Source: an uncultured Verrucomicrobiae bacterium
Lineage (GTDB): Bacteria > Verrucomicrobiota > Verrucomicrobiia > Chthoniobacterales > UBA10450
Assembly (NCBI GenBank): GCA_963726745.1
Contig: CAVSDR010000002.1
Span: forward strand, 224,001 to 288,000
Direction: 5' to 3'
DNA: 64,000 nt
Below, piece after piece: positions 51,786-58,914 of this stretch. Position numbers and translations under genes: made by a program. Position 1 is the stretch's first letter, and every line of letters begins with the position of its first letter. The notes below the pieces were generated by a model, which was given only the letters and a program-made list of their open reading frames with translations, had not been told where the DNA came from and made no database searches.

Positions 51786-51789
<4 letters not shown>
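50793..51789 (+). CDS. ldhA: D-lactate/2-hydroxyacid dehydrogenase; frameshift near 51335
   Basis: [36 protein letters not shown]. Confidence 0.9.
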
Positions 51790-53440
<1,651 letters not shown>

Positions 53441-53444
<4 letters not shown>

Positions 53445-54727
53445 TGGCCACCACCGGCCGGGAGATTCGCGGCCTTCCAATCCATCGCCATGCGGATGCG
53501 GGCGCGGCCGCTGGGATGATCGAAAAAGATCCATTCCTCGAGCGGCGATGGATCGAGCTTGCGGTAAGTCCCGAGCTTGAGCGAGACCGTCGCCATTGCG
53601 TCCGGCTCGCGGGCGGTATTGATCCCGAAGGCGTCGGCTTCGACTTCGGCCACGCGAGTGATCGTGTTGCTGATCGGCGTGAGCAGGAAAGAGAGCGTGC
53701 CGAAGATGAGCGCGAGTAAGGGCAGTCCGGCCGGGTCGGCGATGCCGCGCACGCCCCAACGCGGCCCCCAGCGATCGACCGCCCAGCCAAAAGCGACCCG
53801 CGCGATGGCAAAAAGAAGCAGCAAGATGACGGCAAAATTAACCAGCATCTTGGCCACGTGGTTGAGCACGTAGTGCCCCATCTCATGCGCCATCACGTGC
53901 CGGATTTCGGGGAGCGAACATTGCTTGAGCAGGTTGTCGTTCAGCGCGATCCGGGTGGTGCCGAGGAAACCGGCCACGTTCGCGCTCACGCGGTTCGACT
54001 GGCGGGAGGCGTCGACTTCGAAGACCTGTTTCACTGGAATCTGGTTGGCTCGCGCCATCGTCAGGATCGGCTCCGAAATGCGCGCATCCTCGAGCGGCCG
54101 GTATTTATTGAAAAGCGGTTCGATGAAGACCGGCGCCAGAAGCACGCCGACGAGGAGAAAGCACACGCCCACGGCGGTGCCCCAAACCCACCACGTGCGC
54201 GGCGCGCGCCGGAAGACCGCGTAGAGCGCCACCAGGAGCAGTGTCACGACGACCAGCGTGACCGTGAGCGCGGTCGCTTGTTCGGCCAACCAGGCGCCGA
54301 ACTTTTGCGTCGCCAGCCCGTAGGCATGTTCGCGGAAGAAGTGCTCGTAGACGTTTAACGGGAAGCCGACCGCGGTCGTGAGCAACAGATAAGCGAGGGC
54401 GTAGAGCGCGACTTGCAATGAGCGAGAGCGCGTCCGGCGTTCGGCAAAATCGCGCATCCGCGCGGAGAGCCCGGTGCTGAGAAGCGCGAGGGAGATTGCG
54501 GCGCCGAGCAGGTAATTCCAGAGGATGAGCCAGTAGCCGCCCTCGAAGTAGGCATCGGACGCGGCGCGCTTTTCCGGCGGGACGGTGTCGAGCCAGGCGC
54601 GGGTCGCCGCGGCTGGATCGGCGTGCGCCGGGATCGCCGGAGTCGCGGCCGGCGAGAGCTCCTGCGCAGGGGCGCCGACGGGCAGGACCAGGGAAATAAG
54701 CAGCAGGAGGAAGAACCAGCGTTTCAT
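53441..54727 (-). CDS. M48 (Ste24-like) membrane metallopeptidase
   Basis: HEMGH, EVEAD, DHPS. Confidence 0.9.
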
Positions 54728-54775: not shown

Positions 54776-55750
54776 CTAGACCAGCGCACCGCCGCAGCTC
54801 GAGCCAGCGCCGGCAGTGCAGCCGAAACAATGATCGCCGGTGAGAATCTCGCGGTGCTCGACCTCCGCGGGATCGAGGTCCCAGAGCGAAAGCGCGCGAT
54901 CGCCGTCGCGCCAGTGCAGCTTCAGCATCTGGTTGAAGTCGCAGTCAAAAACTTCGCCGGTCCAGCTGACGTTGATCGTGTTCCGGCACATCAAGCCGGC
55001 GACGGTCGCGGGATTGAAGGCGTCGTTCAAGAGCAGCATGTAATCGCCGAGCTTGTTGTTGTTCCGCAACCAGGAGGCGAAGCGCGCGACCGGCAGGTTC
55101 GTGATCGTAAATAGCTGGTTGAAGACGATCCCAAAGTGCTCGCGGAGCTCGCGCTTGTAGTCCGCTTCCAGTTCGGCTTGGGGCCCGGGGAGGACGGCGC
55201 CGTTGGGATTGAAGACGAGATGGAGTGGCAAGGCCGGATCGATCCCGTAGCCTAACGAGTTCAAGAGTTGCAGGCCCTTGATGCTGCCGTCAAAAACGCC
55301 GTCGCCGCGCTGCGCGTTCACGTTCTCCGGCGAGTAGCAGGGCATCGAGGCGATGATCTCGATCTGGTGTTGCGCGAGGAAGGCGGCGTAATCCTCAAAG
55401 CCGGGCTCGAGCAGGATGGTAAGATTGCAGCGGTCGATAATGTGCCGCGGCGGCGTAAGCGCTTTCAGCCGCTCGACGAAATACTTGAAGTCGGGAATCA
55501 TTTCCGGTGCGCCGCCGGTCAGGTCGACCGTGGGAATGTCGGTCTTCGCCAGCCAATCGATCACGCGATCGATCGTTGCGCGCGACATGATTTCCTTCCG
55601 CTTCGGCCCGGCGTTCACGTGGCAGTGAATGCAGGTGAGGTTGCACAGCTTGCCCACGTTGACCTGCAGGATCTCGGTGCGCGTGTGCCGCAGCGGCAGG
55701 CGATGCTCCGCGAGTTTGCGGGCGAAGGAATTTTCGGCGGTCAAGTTCAT
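54776..55750 (-). CDS. arsS: Arsenosugar-biosynthesis-type radical SAM protein
   Basis: LQVNVGKLCNLTCIHCHV, LTGGAPE, DCDFNQ, HCFGCTAGAGSSCGG. Confidence 0.85.
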   Translation of the reverse strand: MNLTAENSFARKLAEHRLPLRHTRTEILQVNVGKLCNLTCIHCHVNAGPKRKEIMSRATIDRVIDWLAKTDIPTVDLTGGAPEMIPDFKYFVERLKALTPPRHIIDRCNLTILLEPGFEDYAAFLAQHQIEIIASMPCYSPENVNAQRGDGVFDGSIKGLQLLNSLGYGIDPALPLHLVFNPNGAVLPGPQAELEADYKRELREHFGIVFNQLFTITNLPVARFASWLRNNNKLGDYMLLLNDAFNPATVAGLMCRNTINVSWTGEVFDCDFNQMLKLHWRDGDRALSLWDLDPAEVEHREILTGDHCFGCTAGAGSSCGGALV

Positions 55751-56865
55751 GCGAGGCGCAGGAGAGTATACGCGAGCGCGGCCAAAAGCGCAGCGCAGGG
55801 AAGGGTCACGATCCAGGAGAGGGCGATGTTGCGCATCACCCGCGGGTTACTCTGCGCGGTCGTGAGGCCGATGCCGAAAAGCGCGCCCACGGAGACATGC
55901 GTGGTCGAGACGGGAAGGCCGAAGAGGCTGGCTAAAATGACGAGCAAGCCGGTGGCCAGATTGGCCGCGAAGCCCTGGCCGTGATTCATCGCGGTGATTC
56001 GATGGCTCATGGTTTCGGCGATGCGGCGAGCATTAAGCAACCCGCCCAAGGCGATGGCGAGCGCGACCGCGAGGAAGCCCCAGCGCAGGTCGAGCGCCTG
56101 CAGGACGAGGAGCATGGCAACCATCTTCGGGGTGTCATTCAAGCCGCGCGCAAAACTGACCACGCCCGCGCTGAGGAAATGCGCCCCGTCCATCGCCGGC
56201 TGACCGCGGAGGCCGAGGAAATTGCCGGCATAACGTTCGCGGCAATCATCGAACTCGCCCACGCTCAGATTGACTGGGAACGGGCGCGAGCGCAGCGCCA
56301 GGATCGAGCCCGCCGGCTGGGCCACCACGCGTTCTTCGCGGCCAACGCAGACGCACCACTCCTTGCCCACGCCGAGGAGGACGCGCCCGGCATGCAAAAG
56401 GAAATAAAGCGCCGCGCCCAGTGCGATCGCCAGCACCGGGCCAAGCACGAGCGGAAGGAAGAAGCCTTTCCCGAGCGCGCTGAAATTGACCTGCCCGCCG
56501 ACCGCTACCAGCCCGCTGCCAACCAACGCGCCCGTGAGCGCATGCGTGGTGGAAATGGGAAACCCGAGCCGCGTCGCGAGGAGGACCGTGACCGCGGCCG
56601 CCAGGACCACCGCGAGCAAAAAAGCGGGCGAGGCCACAACGACGTCGGGCACGAGGCCTTTGCCGGAAAACTTCTTCAGCAATCCCTGCGCGAGAAAGAT
56701 GGACGCGAGCGAACCGGCAAAGGTGGTGACCGTGGCCCAGGCAATCGCGCTGCGGTAGCTGCAAGTGCGCGAGCCATAAAGGGAGGCCACGCCTTTGAAG
56801 TTATCGTTCGCCCCGTTGGACCAAGCGAGGAAGACGGTAGCGAGGAAGAGAGCGAGAGCGATCAT
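55747..56865 (-). CDS. PiT-family anion transporter
   Basis: GANDNFKG, PISTTH, GLNDTPK, PVSTTH. Confidence 0.85.
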   Translation of the reverse strand: MIALALFLATVFLAWSNGANDNFKGVASLYGSRTCSYRSAIAWATVTTFAGSLASIFLAQGLLKKFSGKGLVPDVVVASPAFLLAVVLAAAVTVLLATRLGFPISTTHALTGALVGSGLVAVGGQVNFSALGKGFFLPLVLGPVLAIALGAALYFLLHAGRVLLGVGKEWCVCVGREERVVAQPAGSILALRSRPFPVNLSVGEFDDCRERYAGNFLGLRGQPAMDGAHFLSAGVVSFARGLNDTPKMVAMLLVLQALDLRWGFLAVALAIALGGLLNARRIAETMSHRITAMNHGQGFAANLATGLLVILASLFGLPVSTTHVSVGALFGIGLTTAQSNPRVMRNIALSWIVTLPCAALLAALAYTLLRLA

Positions 56866-57740
56866 ACGCGATAGCCGGTGCGAAAGAAGAGCCGATAGAT
56901 CGCGCCGCCGCAGAGGCCGCCGACGATCGGCGCGACAAGGTAAACCGTGAGCCAGCCGAGCCCATTGGCGGTGAAGGGCACGCCGCGCCAGCCAGCAAGC
57001 GAAGAGAAGAGGCGCGGCGCGAGGTCGCGCGCGGGATTGAGGCAGGCCATGGTCATCGGGCCGAGAAGCGAGATCAGGATCGTGACCGTGAGGCCGATGG
57101 TCGCGGCCGTGAGGAGTTGCGGGCGATTGGCGTTGCGCTCGTCGGTGACGCAAAAGATCACCAGCAGGAGAATGGCGGTGCCGACGACCTCGGCGGCGAA
57201 GGCGGCGCCGGGCGAGAGAATCGCGCGTGTCTCCGGCGTGAGTGCCTTGCCGCCGGGATTCGGGAAAAATTCGCCGAAGATCATGGCAGTGGCTTCGCTC
57301 CCGGCCTCGCCGCGGATGATGTTGTGCTTCGTTTCGTAGCTACGAATGGCGCCGCCGTAGAGCGCGAAGACCATGGCCGCAGCGGCGAAAGCGCCGACTA
57401 ATTGCACGCCGATATAAGGCAGGACGAGCCGCGCGGGGAAACGCGCGAAGGCGGCCGCAGCGATCGTAACCGCGGGGTTGAGATGCGCGCTGCTGAGCGA
57501 GCCGGTGAGATAAATCGCAGTCGCCACGCCCAACCCCCAGACGATCGCGACCTGAAAGACGCCCACCTGCGCGCCGGTCGTGACCGCGGCCGCGCCGCAA
57601 CCAAGACCGAAGAAGACGAGCAGGAAGGTGCCGAAGAACTCGCCGATGACCCATTTTGGAATGGGCGTCGCAGCGAGCTCGATCTCGGCCTCGGCGTGCG
57701 GCGGCGGCTCCGGTCGCGTCGCGCGAATGAACTCGGCCAT
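56862..57740 (-). CDS. MIP channel, aquaglyceroporin type
   Basis: HLNPAVT and LNPARD. Confidence 0.9.
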   Translation of the reverse strand: MAEFIRATRPEPPPHAEAEIELAATPIPKWVIGEFFGTFLLVFFGLGCGAAAVTTGAQVGVFQVAIVWGLGVATAIYLTGSLSSAHLNPAVTIAAAAFARFPARLVLPYIGVQLVGAFAAAAMVFALYGGAIRSYETKHNIIRGEAGSEATAMIFGEFFPNPGGKALTPETRAILSPGAAFAAEVVGTAILLLVIFCVTDERNANRPQLLTAATIGLTVTILISLLGPMTMACLNPARDLAPRLFSSLAGWRGVPFTANGLGWLTVYLVAPIVGGLCGGAIYRLFFRTGYRV

Positions 57741-57753
57741 GTTGCCGGCTAAA

Positions 57754-58914
57754 TTAGCAGCAGCCGCCGGCGTCGCAGCACGAGCTCGCGTCCGTGGTGA
57801 CGGAATAATCCTGGCCCTTGGTCTCGCGCGGATGCCGGAGCGCGGTGCGGGTGCAGTCAAAGGGCTGGGCCTCCGCGAGCGGGATTTCGGTCATCGGCTC
57901 GATGAACTCGAACGACTGCGCGTAAGGCGCCTTGCGGTAGAGATTGAAGGTCTTGTCGCACACCGCGTAGCGCACGCCGCGCTCCATCCGGTGATTGTCG
58001 TCATCGAGCACTTCTCGGAAGGGACCACGATAAACGACCGCCTGGTTGCGCTCGAAACAGGGGCCCTGCTTGCCCTTGAAGGCTTCGATCGTGACCGAGC
58101 GAAACTCGATGCCTTCGACCGTTTGCCACGGCTGCGCGTCGCGCTTGAGAATCTGGATGCCGTAGAAGCCGGCCTCGCTGAACGCCTGGAGGAAGCCTTC
58201 CTCGGTGAGCGCGCCGGAGATGCAGCCGCTCCAAAGTTCTGCATCCTCCTGCAGACGCTCGGGCACTTCTTCGTCGGAAACGATATCGGAGATGACCGCG
58301 CGGCCGCCGCGGCGGAGGACGCGGAAGATTTCCTCGAAGAGCTGCCGCTTGGCCTTGGCCTCGACAAGATTGAGCACGCAGTTCGAGACGACCACATCGA
58401 CCGACTCCGTCGCGACCAGCGGAAATTTCACGCGCAATTCCTGCGCGAGTTCATCGGCGCGCAGAAAAGAAGCCGCGTCGGTGATGGGCGAGTTCTTGAG
58501 CTCGTCGTCTAATTTATCGAGATCGAGCGCGAGGTCCTGGATGCGGCCTTTGCGAAACTCGACATTGGCGTAGCCGAGGCGCTCGGCCACGATCGGCGCG
58601 TTCCGCCGCGCGACGCTGAGCATCTCATCGGTCATGTCGACCCCAATCACTTTGCCGGAAGAGCCGACCACTTGCGCGGCGATGAAGCAGATTTTCCCGG
58701 TGCCGCTGCCGAGATCGAGCACGGTTTCGCCGGCCTGCAGATACTTGCTCGGGTCGCCGCAGCCGTAATCGCGCTCGATCACTTCGGCGGGAATGATCTT
58801 GAGGAACTGCGGGTCGTAGTCGACCGGGCAGCAAAGCTTCGCTTCTGCGGCTTGCGCGCCGGCGGCGTAACGTTCGCGGACGGCGCTTTCGGGATTCAAT
58901 TTGGGGGTGCTCAT
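57754..58914 (-). CDS. arsM: ArsM-like SAM-dependent methyltransferase
   Basis: LCCP, YGCGDP, LDLGSGTG, GVDMTDEML, SNCVLNL, WSGCISGAL, terminal CC. Confidence 0.8.
   Translation of the reverse strand: MSTPKLNPESAVRERYAAGAQAAEAKLCCPVDYDPQFLKIIPAEVIERDYGCGDPSKYLQAGETVLDLGSGTGKICFIAAQVVGSSGKVIGVDMTDEMLSVARRNAPIVAERLGYANVEFRKGRIQDLALDLDKLDDELKNSPITDAASFLRADELAQELRVKFPLVATESVDVVVSNCVLNLVEAKAKRQLFEEIFRVLRRGGRAVISDIVSDEEVPERLQEDAELWSGCISGALTEEGFLQAFSEAGFYGIQILKRDAQPWQTVEGIEFRSVTIEAFKGKQGPCFERNQAVVYRGPFREVLDDDNHRMERGVRYAVCDKTFNLYRKAPYAQSFEFIEPMTEIPLAEAQPFDCTRTALRHPRETKGQDYSVTTDASSCCDAGGCC

Follow-up and report, generated by a model that had tools for sequence, protein, structure and literature searches.

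Why should an operon whose enzymes point to the building of organoarsenic compounds hold two transporters between those enzymes? The uptake of arsenic by bacteria is commonly regarded as an accident, and the question is raised here by a locus in 64,000 nucleotides of DNA (the window; positions 224,001 to 288,000 of the forward strand of contig CAVSDR010000002.1, assembly GCA_963726745.1) from an uncultured Verrucomicrobiae bacterium of the order Chthoniobacterales (UBA10450). On the minus strand, four co-oriented genes follow one another: an arsM-like gene (57754..58914; arsM), encoding a long-form As(III) S-adenosylmethionine (SAM) methyltransferase of 386 aa with a Cys-rich C-terminal tail; a gene for a GlpF-like aquaglyceroporin of 292 aa (56862..57740; the channel); a gene for a 372-aa carrier of the PiT/SLC20 family, belonging to an arsM/arsS-linked subfamily (55747..56865; pit); and arsS (54776..55750), encoding a 324-aa radical SAM enzyme with a CxxxCxxC motif (C36/C40/C43) and a DUF3641 domain. 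A gap of 13 bases separates the arsM stop codon from the channel gene, and the channel/pit and pit/arsS junctions are both ATGA overlaps, as described in an earlier interpretation made from the letters of this DNA (the sequence-only reading). That reading took both transporters for arsenic entry routes. Our analysis shows that the four-gene locus is real and conserved and suggests that the import idea holds for PiT, not for the channel. The interpretation that we prefer, and to which we assign a probability of roughly one half, is that of an arsM-arsS operon for organoarsenic synthesis, in which PiT imports arsenate as raw material and the channel vents surplus trivalent arsenic. Papers are cited below by accession, and numbers prefixed G, L and C are our own labels for genomes, loci and contigs.

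Conservation of the four-gene locus

The contiguous gene order recurs identically in six further genomes (G018, G371, G372, G374, G429 and G466) among the 151 family genomes searched, in G414, where arsC/arsR is inserted behind arsM, and in two loci from the Genome Taxonomy Database (GTDB; L072 and L073). This recurrence is more than chance. The closest named homologues are labelled Chthoniobacterales or Verrucomicrobiota, and the guanine-plus-cytosine content of the four genes (0.62-0.67) is the same as that of the window (0.64), for which reason horizontal acquisition of the block was set aside.

The same 151 genomes were searched gene by gene for arsM, arsS, the PiT subtype, the channel, a variant of the phosphate-binding protein PstS and acr3. 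They include three unpublished genomes (G001, G357 and G461) and contain arsM in 76 cases and arsS in 100 (73 and 97 without these three). The PiT subtype occurs in 46 genomes, 44 of them with arsM, which lies within 10 kb in 40; in the remaining six, arsM is on a separate contig or absent. The channel occurs in 18 genomes, all with arsM (17 within 10 kb) and 13 with arsS. Both transporters follow arsM more closely than arsS; they are found together in nine genomes, with the channel directly behind arsM in most loci. Beyond the family, the best 80 of 589 GTDB loci carrying the PiT subtype, surveyed over an 8-kb range, come from Verrucomicrobiota, Cyanobacteria, Bacteroidota, Proteobacteria, Omnitrophota and others, and hold arsS in 40 cases, arsM in 39 and either gene in 47 (marker profiles were made from the open reading frames, ORFs, of the surveyed loci and their relatives, with the ArsM, AhpD-like, Acr3, ArsR and PstS seeds checked against NCBIfam). 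The order arsM-pit-arsS appears in eight cyanobacterial loci (L088, L094, L102, L131, L133, L134, L138 and L146), of which L102 belongs to the cultured Xenococcus PCC 7305. The synteny survey for which the sequence-only reading had called thus found the transporters linked to arsM and arsS both in the family genomes and across phyla.

Two phosphate-type importers in one slot

The position between arsM and arsS appears modular. Across 26 arsS loci of relatives, it holds the channel plus PiT, PiT alone, the channel alone, a PstS-type ATP-binding cassette (ABC) transporter, arsC/arsR, acr3 or nothing, the PstS-type cassette being accompanied in several loci by a phosphate-selective porin and ArsR. 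The PstS variant is present in 13 of the 151 genomes (10 if the unpublished ones are set aside). Each of the 13 has arsM, at a distance of no more than 10 kb in 12 of them. The variant is absent from all 44 arsM genomes that carry PiT, where an overlap of 7.5 would be expected (of 76). This mutual exclusion of PiT and the PstS variant favours selected oxyanion import and is the strongest argument for it: because two unrelated phosphate-type importers alternate in one slot, oxyanion import is probably what is selected. The phosphate ligands of Clostridium perfringens PBP-1 include R125 and S129 (PMC5381212), positions at which the PstS variant has Lys and Arg in 9/9 copies examined and housekeeping PstS has Arg and Ser in 2/2.

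PstS-type cassettes stand beside arsM at L040:8946-9785, L046:1959-6865, L052, L060, L178, L179 and L180. At four further loci (L049:10671-11666, L057:4037-5044, L058:4024-5079 and L210), arsS or arsM has as its neighbour an ABC transporter, a possible third importer, with a binding protein that most resembles 2-aminoethylphosphonate binders but scores below cut-off. The second arsM-arsS locus of G025 keeps only the first 66 pit codons (L061:4262-4489), and the other locus of that genome has a Pst cassette.

The PiT carrier

The carrier is a PHO4-family protein (PF01384, 225 bits, cut-off 33.7) that scores below the cut-offs of the named models PitA (NF033774, 73/800) and CysP (NF053884, 74/400). 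Its AlphaFold2 model (predicted local distance difference test, pLDDT, 96) has a single significant structure match, Thermotoga maritima TmPiT (6L85; TM-score 0.73-0.74), and all eight phosphate ligands listed for TmPiT in PMC7413737 are retained (D21, D244, S105/T106/T107 and S320/T321/T322). Other positions have changed across the subtype, as seen in an alignment of 111 mostly full-length sequences (the query and 110 of 150 listed representatives). Specifically, TmPiT H254 is replaced by Arg (R240 here) in 111/111 sequences, a Lys directly follows the first Asp motif (K24 here) in 109, and D327 of the third sodium site has become Asn (N302 here) in 102, whereas the housekeeping PiT of the same genome has His and an acidic residue at the H254 and D327 positions.

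Further, the scaffold hairpin between transmembrane helices 4 and 5 (TM4/TM5) of TmPiT is replaced in the subtype by a soluble insert (residues 158-226; 56188..56394, minus strand), whose C171, C173 and C208 are all present in 94 of the 111 aligned sequences. It does not align to 6L85 and contains beta strands in the predicted model. By analogy with TmPiT topology, the insert would lie on the cytoplasmic side. As(III) is usually bound by three thiolates, and we speculate that the insert could sense cytoplasmic As(III) and throttle uptake, although the cysteines may instead serve a zinc site or a disulphide. In two representatives, PiT is fused to DUF547, which regularly neighbours arsS.

ArsM, ArsS and the proposed pathway

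ArsS scores 430 bits against TIGR04167 (cut-off 300) and combines PF12345 (DUF3641, 183 bits) with PF04055. The best matches of ArsM in the Protein Data Bank (PDB) are arsenic methyltransferases (E 4e-35), and its C52, C179 and C231 align with C72, C174 and C224 of CmArsM, three of the four catalytic cysteines; the best NCBIfam match is the arsinothricin model, below cut-off. Two families that NCBIfam describes as arsenosugar glycosyltransferases, TIGR04282 and TIGR04283, are found over cut-off at other places in the genome.

From these parts a route can be proposed. The PiT variant would import an oxyanion of tetrahedral shape, with As(V) as the likeliest candidate. A thioredoxin-type ArsC-like enzyme, whose gene lies on another contig, could reduce this As(V) to As(III). 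ArsM, judged by its family, would methylate As(III) to dimethylarsenite, DMAs(III), and ArsS would adenosylate DMAs(III) to 5'-deoxy-5'-dimethylarsinoyl-adenosine (DDMAA), the reaction given for its family in PMC13598754. The TIGR04282 and TIGR04283 glycosyltransferases might then finish an arsenosugar or arsenolipid. As a passive pore, the channel would let As(III) or methylated As(III) pass down its gradient, which would run outward if As(III) is made inside the cell, much as for the Sinorhizobium meliloti channel AqpS.

In four loci (L150, L151, L160 and L178), the neighbours of arsM are a metallophosphoesterase, DUF2064 and another radical SAM enzyme in place of arsS; three of these loci also have the channel.

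The aquaglyceroporin

The channel is a major intrinsic protein (MIP; TIGR00861, 178 bits, cut-off 171), the only one found in the genome, for which the ESM Atlas offers only generic MIP clusters. Its NPA and NPARD motifs are kept in 120/120 close homologues, and its closest solved structure is GlpF. Alignment to 1FX8 gives the selectivity filter W68-I223-A232-R238, of which W68 and R238 are invariant in the 120 close sequences, I223 is kept in 111 and A232 in 115. The motif W-I-A-R differs from the GlpF filter, W-G-F-R.

The sequence-only reading counted this channel as an arsenic inlet, and on this point the evidence turns the other way, while for PiT the alternation with Pst favours import. 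In G407, the operon reads arsM-acr3-pit-arsS, with an Acr3 (381 bits, over cut-off) exactly in the place of the channel, and in three more genomes (G034, G380 and G446) acr3 stands beside channel remnants; G034 and G380 belong to one genus, G407 and G446 to another. Of 428 metagenome loci with a channel of this clade, the best 80 were surveyed, many of them on short contigs; ArsC is a neighbour in 16 and arsM or arsS in 11, Acr3 in none, and 7 have none of the scored neighbours. The arsR-arsC-channel operon without Acr3 is the AqpS arrangement, which serves efflux of internally produced As(III) (PMC6138428, PMC4435449), and it is seen in the relatives in those 16 of 80 loci; at the genome level, the bacterium studied here likewise combines an MIP with an arsenate reductase candidate (ArsC-like, below cut-off), with no ArsB or Acr3 found. 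Because the exporter Acr3 takes the slot of the channel and the clade forms arsR-arsC-channel operons, import as its selected role is disfavoured, and by this analogy the channel is more likely an As(III) outlet than an inlet.

Three observations on related channels stand apart. A CobW-like GTPase directly precedes the same W-I-A-R aquaglyceroporin in 47 of the 80 loci L186-L265 (for example, L206:344-2821 and L215:152-2577), often behind a gene for an ArsR-family regulator whose C-terminal part has a Cys-Cys pair; the operon is possibly a further metalloid system. A Microcoleus channel near the PiT locus L083 was not counted in the clade because of its NPARS motif and differing filter. At L053:4821-6848, the channel and PiT read as one ORF of 676 aa, with a frameshift near the channel end and another in arsS, which suggests a sequencing error, not a true fusion.

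Alternative explanations

A number of observations weigh against arsenate import for synthesis with a venting channel. The retained ligands of PiT suit phosphate as well as arsenate, and mutation of D327 abolishes phosphate binding in TmPiT (PMC7413737), so that its replacement by Asn leaves coupling, and even the direction of transport, uncertain. Among the surveyed PiT loci, 27/80 have no recognised arsenic-module neighbour and 6/80 only accessory genes, and the subtype is rare phylum-wide (4/301 genomes). Neither transporter type is essential, because 19 of the 76 arsM genomes go without PiT and the Pst variant and 55 without the channel and Acr3; further, kin genomes are not independent, and Fisher values overstate the linkage. 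The profile searches bore out the sequence-only reading for ArsS, but ArsM matches the ArsM models below every curated cut-off (NF038099, 131.6/400; NF008823, 210.1/263; NF040538, 340.7/500), and the first catalytic cysteine, C44 of CmArsM, aligns with A25, with C28 and C29 lying 3-4 residues off. The thioredoxin-type ArsC-like gene scores 108 bits (cut-off 174) and adjoins the ordinary pstS. In an ArsM tree built by a quick method, 23 of 40 inner branches are open and the transporter states are intermingled; the acr3-in-slot locus groups with channel-plus-PiT loci at weak support (89), and a count of independent transporter swaps was given up on this mostly unresolved tree. As to the channel, it overlaps with Acr3 in two arsM genomes where 1.2 are expected (G429 has both intact), and a genome-wide mutual exclusion of the two was dropped as not significant. 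The commonest context of its clade is the CobW-like GTPase operon (47 of the best 80 of 428), not an arsenic enzyme, and any part of arsenic in that context would be conjectural, which tells against an outlet role, as does the fact that a passive channel may run inward with ArsM as a strong sink.

How far, then, could the locus serve defence, as the sequence-only reading denied? Its type is biosynthetic, as that reading held, but "rather than detoxification" is too strong, because an ArsC-like reductase is encoded in the genome, where the searches turned up no further way out for As(III). A combination of detoxification and phosphate rescue, in which ArsM and ArsS make less toxic forms, the channel exports and PiT or Pst imports extra phosphate against arsenate competition, would account for the phosphate transporters that stand beside arsenic genes in arsenic islands (PMC7533571), for the pitA adjoining the arsinothricin cluster (PMC8552651), for the 8/8 phosphate ligands of PiT and for G465, where the PiT subtype lies next to a channel like the nodulin 26-like intrinsic proteins (NIP), a housekeeping pstS and arsC in a genome that yielded no arsM. 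We nonetheless consider it doubtful, as PiT follows arsM (44/46) and not the resistance gene acr3 (3/18 acr3 genomes), and PiT and the PstS variant carry changed residues at or near the anion site, unlike their housekeeping paralogues. That both transporters import, the channel As(III) and PiT As(V), with ArsM as the sink that holds the As(III) gradient inward, strikes us as unlikely: aquaglyceroporins do conduct both ways (PMC6138428, PMC4435449), the operon is without arsC, and the channel sits right behind arsM in most loci and shares nine genomes with PiT, yet an exporter occupies its slot or adjoins its remnants in the four genomes named above, and its clade is the sole transporter of arsR-arsC operons.

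The transporters might also move no arsenic physiologically and instead supply co-substrates, glycerol through the channel and phosphate through the carrier, for glycerol- or phosphate-arsenosugars or arsenosugar phospholipids. Arsenosugars carry glycerol and glycerophosphate aglycones, the closest solved structure to the channel is GlpF and TIGR04282/TIGR04283 genes are in the genome; but the filter is W-I-A-R and not W-G-F-R, the clade also accompanies arsR-arsC, where no sugar is made, and arsM where arsS is absent (L150, L151 and L160), and a glycerol importer would not be replaceable by Acr3, so that such supply seems highly improbable. No glycerol kinase exceeded its cut-off in the genome (the best match, TIGR01311 at 122 bits against 590, is on another contig). 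We give the least credence to the view that the arsenic names are over-extended and that the module handles a different metalloid or oxyanion (selenium, antimony or an already methylated arsenical, for instance methylarsenate): TIGR04167 is by name a (seleno)protein family, the third transporter type beside arsS in L049, L057 and L058 is phosphonate-binding-like (below cut-off) and the main context of the channel clade is the CobW-like GTPase, set against which arsC, arsR and acr3 recur inside loci L042, L054, L055, L152 and L171 and a site that keeps all eight ligands is better suited to an XO4 anion than to one that is methylated.

Arsenate import for organoarsenic synthesis, with the channel as a vent, also has a more far-reaching form, which we offer tentatively and hold to be the less probable one. 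In it, the PiT subtype would be a dedicated arsenate importer gated by a cytoplasmic three-Cys As(III) sensor and one of at least two interchangeable arsenic-acquisition systems feeding organoarsenic biosynthesis in many phyla, with the channel as overflow valve. If that were true, a large part of the Chthoniobacterales would seek out arsenic as a resource (of the 151 genomes, 76 have arsM and 100 have arsS).

Genomic setting

The genome comprises 3.4 Mb and is 94.7% complete. The sequence-only reading had recognised no arsR, arsC, arsB or acr3 in the window, which we confirmed, so that the operon lacks the genes of a canonical ars resistance operon; genome-wide searches located ArsR-family helix-turn-helix proteins and the ArsC-like gene on other contigs. 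At this completeness, acr3, arsB, glutaredoxin-type arsC, arsH and aioA returned no matches genome-wide, the 0 matches to aioA setting the genome apart from arsenic islands. A second, ordinary PiT (contig C3:1104195-1105226) and an ordinary PstS are encoded on another contig, and routine phosphate supply is covered because these separate genes are present. The housekeeping pstS region (contig C3:1095913-1098731; L177:7914-10732) includes the adjacent ArsC-like gene and a porin gene seemingly split over several frames. DUF547 and an unassigned radical SAM gene form a pair that scores over cut-off and is detached from the operon here (contig C6:403766-406052; L176:7767-10053) and adjoins arsM/arsS in relatives (L046, L070, L161, L183 and L184).

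A scan for promoters and terminators returned one promoter-like and eight terminator-like sites, no excess over the 0.8 and 7.1 found in shuffled sequence, and a short inverted repeat 5' of arsM was rejected as an operator, being absent in 16/16 upstream regions of relatives. An M48 peptidase gene (53441-54727) and an amidohydrolase-like ORF for a metal-dependent hydrolase (51786-53759) lie 3' of arsS on the same minus strand; both follow arsS in several genomes of the genus and were seen in none of the other phyla; their placement is probably local synteny. A cysteine dioxygenase-like cupin (PF05995; 60982-61548, minus strand) is located 2 kb upstream of arsM, and no link to the operon was found.

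Relation to known systems

What these results offer is a handle on whether arsenate uptake is purposeful, namely a PiT subfamily tied to arsM/arsS across phyla, swappable with a modified PstS and changed at its anion site. They also supply three proteins for the question of phosphate versus arsenate selectivity (the PiT variant, the PstS variant and the W-I-A-R channel) and suggest that arsenosugars and methylarsenicals may be produced by bacteria that are not photosynthetic. The nearest pathway is that of ArsM and ArsS in Synechocystis sp. PCC 6803, where arsenosugar synthesis was reportedly described by Xue et al. in 2019. Shared with it are an ArsS over the TIGR04167 cut-off, a co-encoded ArsM-type methyltransferase and TIGR04282/TIGR04283 in the genome, whereas here the host is non-photosynthetic, the long ArsM falls below the named cut-offs and two transporters are coupled between the enzymes. 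In full-text searches, which covered little of the subscription literature, we found no description of transporters inside arsM-arsS operons; further context is given in reviews (PMC12159101, PMC8787705) and a preprint (10.1101/2024.02.01.577332).

The ars operon of S. meliloti with AqpS resembles our case in that As(III) has no route other than an MIP although the genome encodes an arsenate reductase, and relatives of the channel form arsR-arsC-channel operons without Acr3 (PMC6138428, PMC4435449). The likeness is one of gene arrangement. Here a GlpF-type NPARD channel lies inside a biosynthetic operon that it shares with a second transporter, while all 18 ars-operon MIPs treated in PMC4435449 stand alone. 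TmPiT (PDB 6L85, PMC7413737) shares with our carrier the fold, D22, D258 and both S-T-T tips, and differs from it, as a sodium-coupled carrier, at H254 (Arg here), at D327 (Asn here), in the Lys after the first Asp motif and in the three-Cys insert that replaces TM4/TM5.

Closer in gene content is the arsinothricin cluster of Burkholderia gladioli, in which arsQML is accompanied by a divergent arsR-pitA-aioAB (PMC8552651). There, too, ArsM, a radical SAM enzyme forming a carbon-arsenic bond and transporters come together, with a PiT gene nearby (a likeness by gene position); in our locus, however, ArsS takes the place of ArsL, there is no ArsQ, no aioA was found and PiT is inside the operon and translationally coupled. 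Finally, in Agrobacterium arsenic islands with pst1, As(V) uptake by Pst1 for arsenolipids has been proposed (PMC7533571), and a Streptomyces arseno-organic cluster includes a phosphonate-type ABC transporter (PMC4943196). Both combine arsenic genes with a neighbouring phosphate-like uptake system, for which a role in supplying As(V) to biosynthesis has been proposed, but they are without arsM and arsS, whereas in our case a single slot of an arsM operon is filled by PiT and Pst in alternation.

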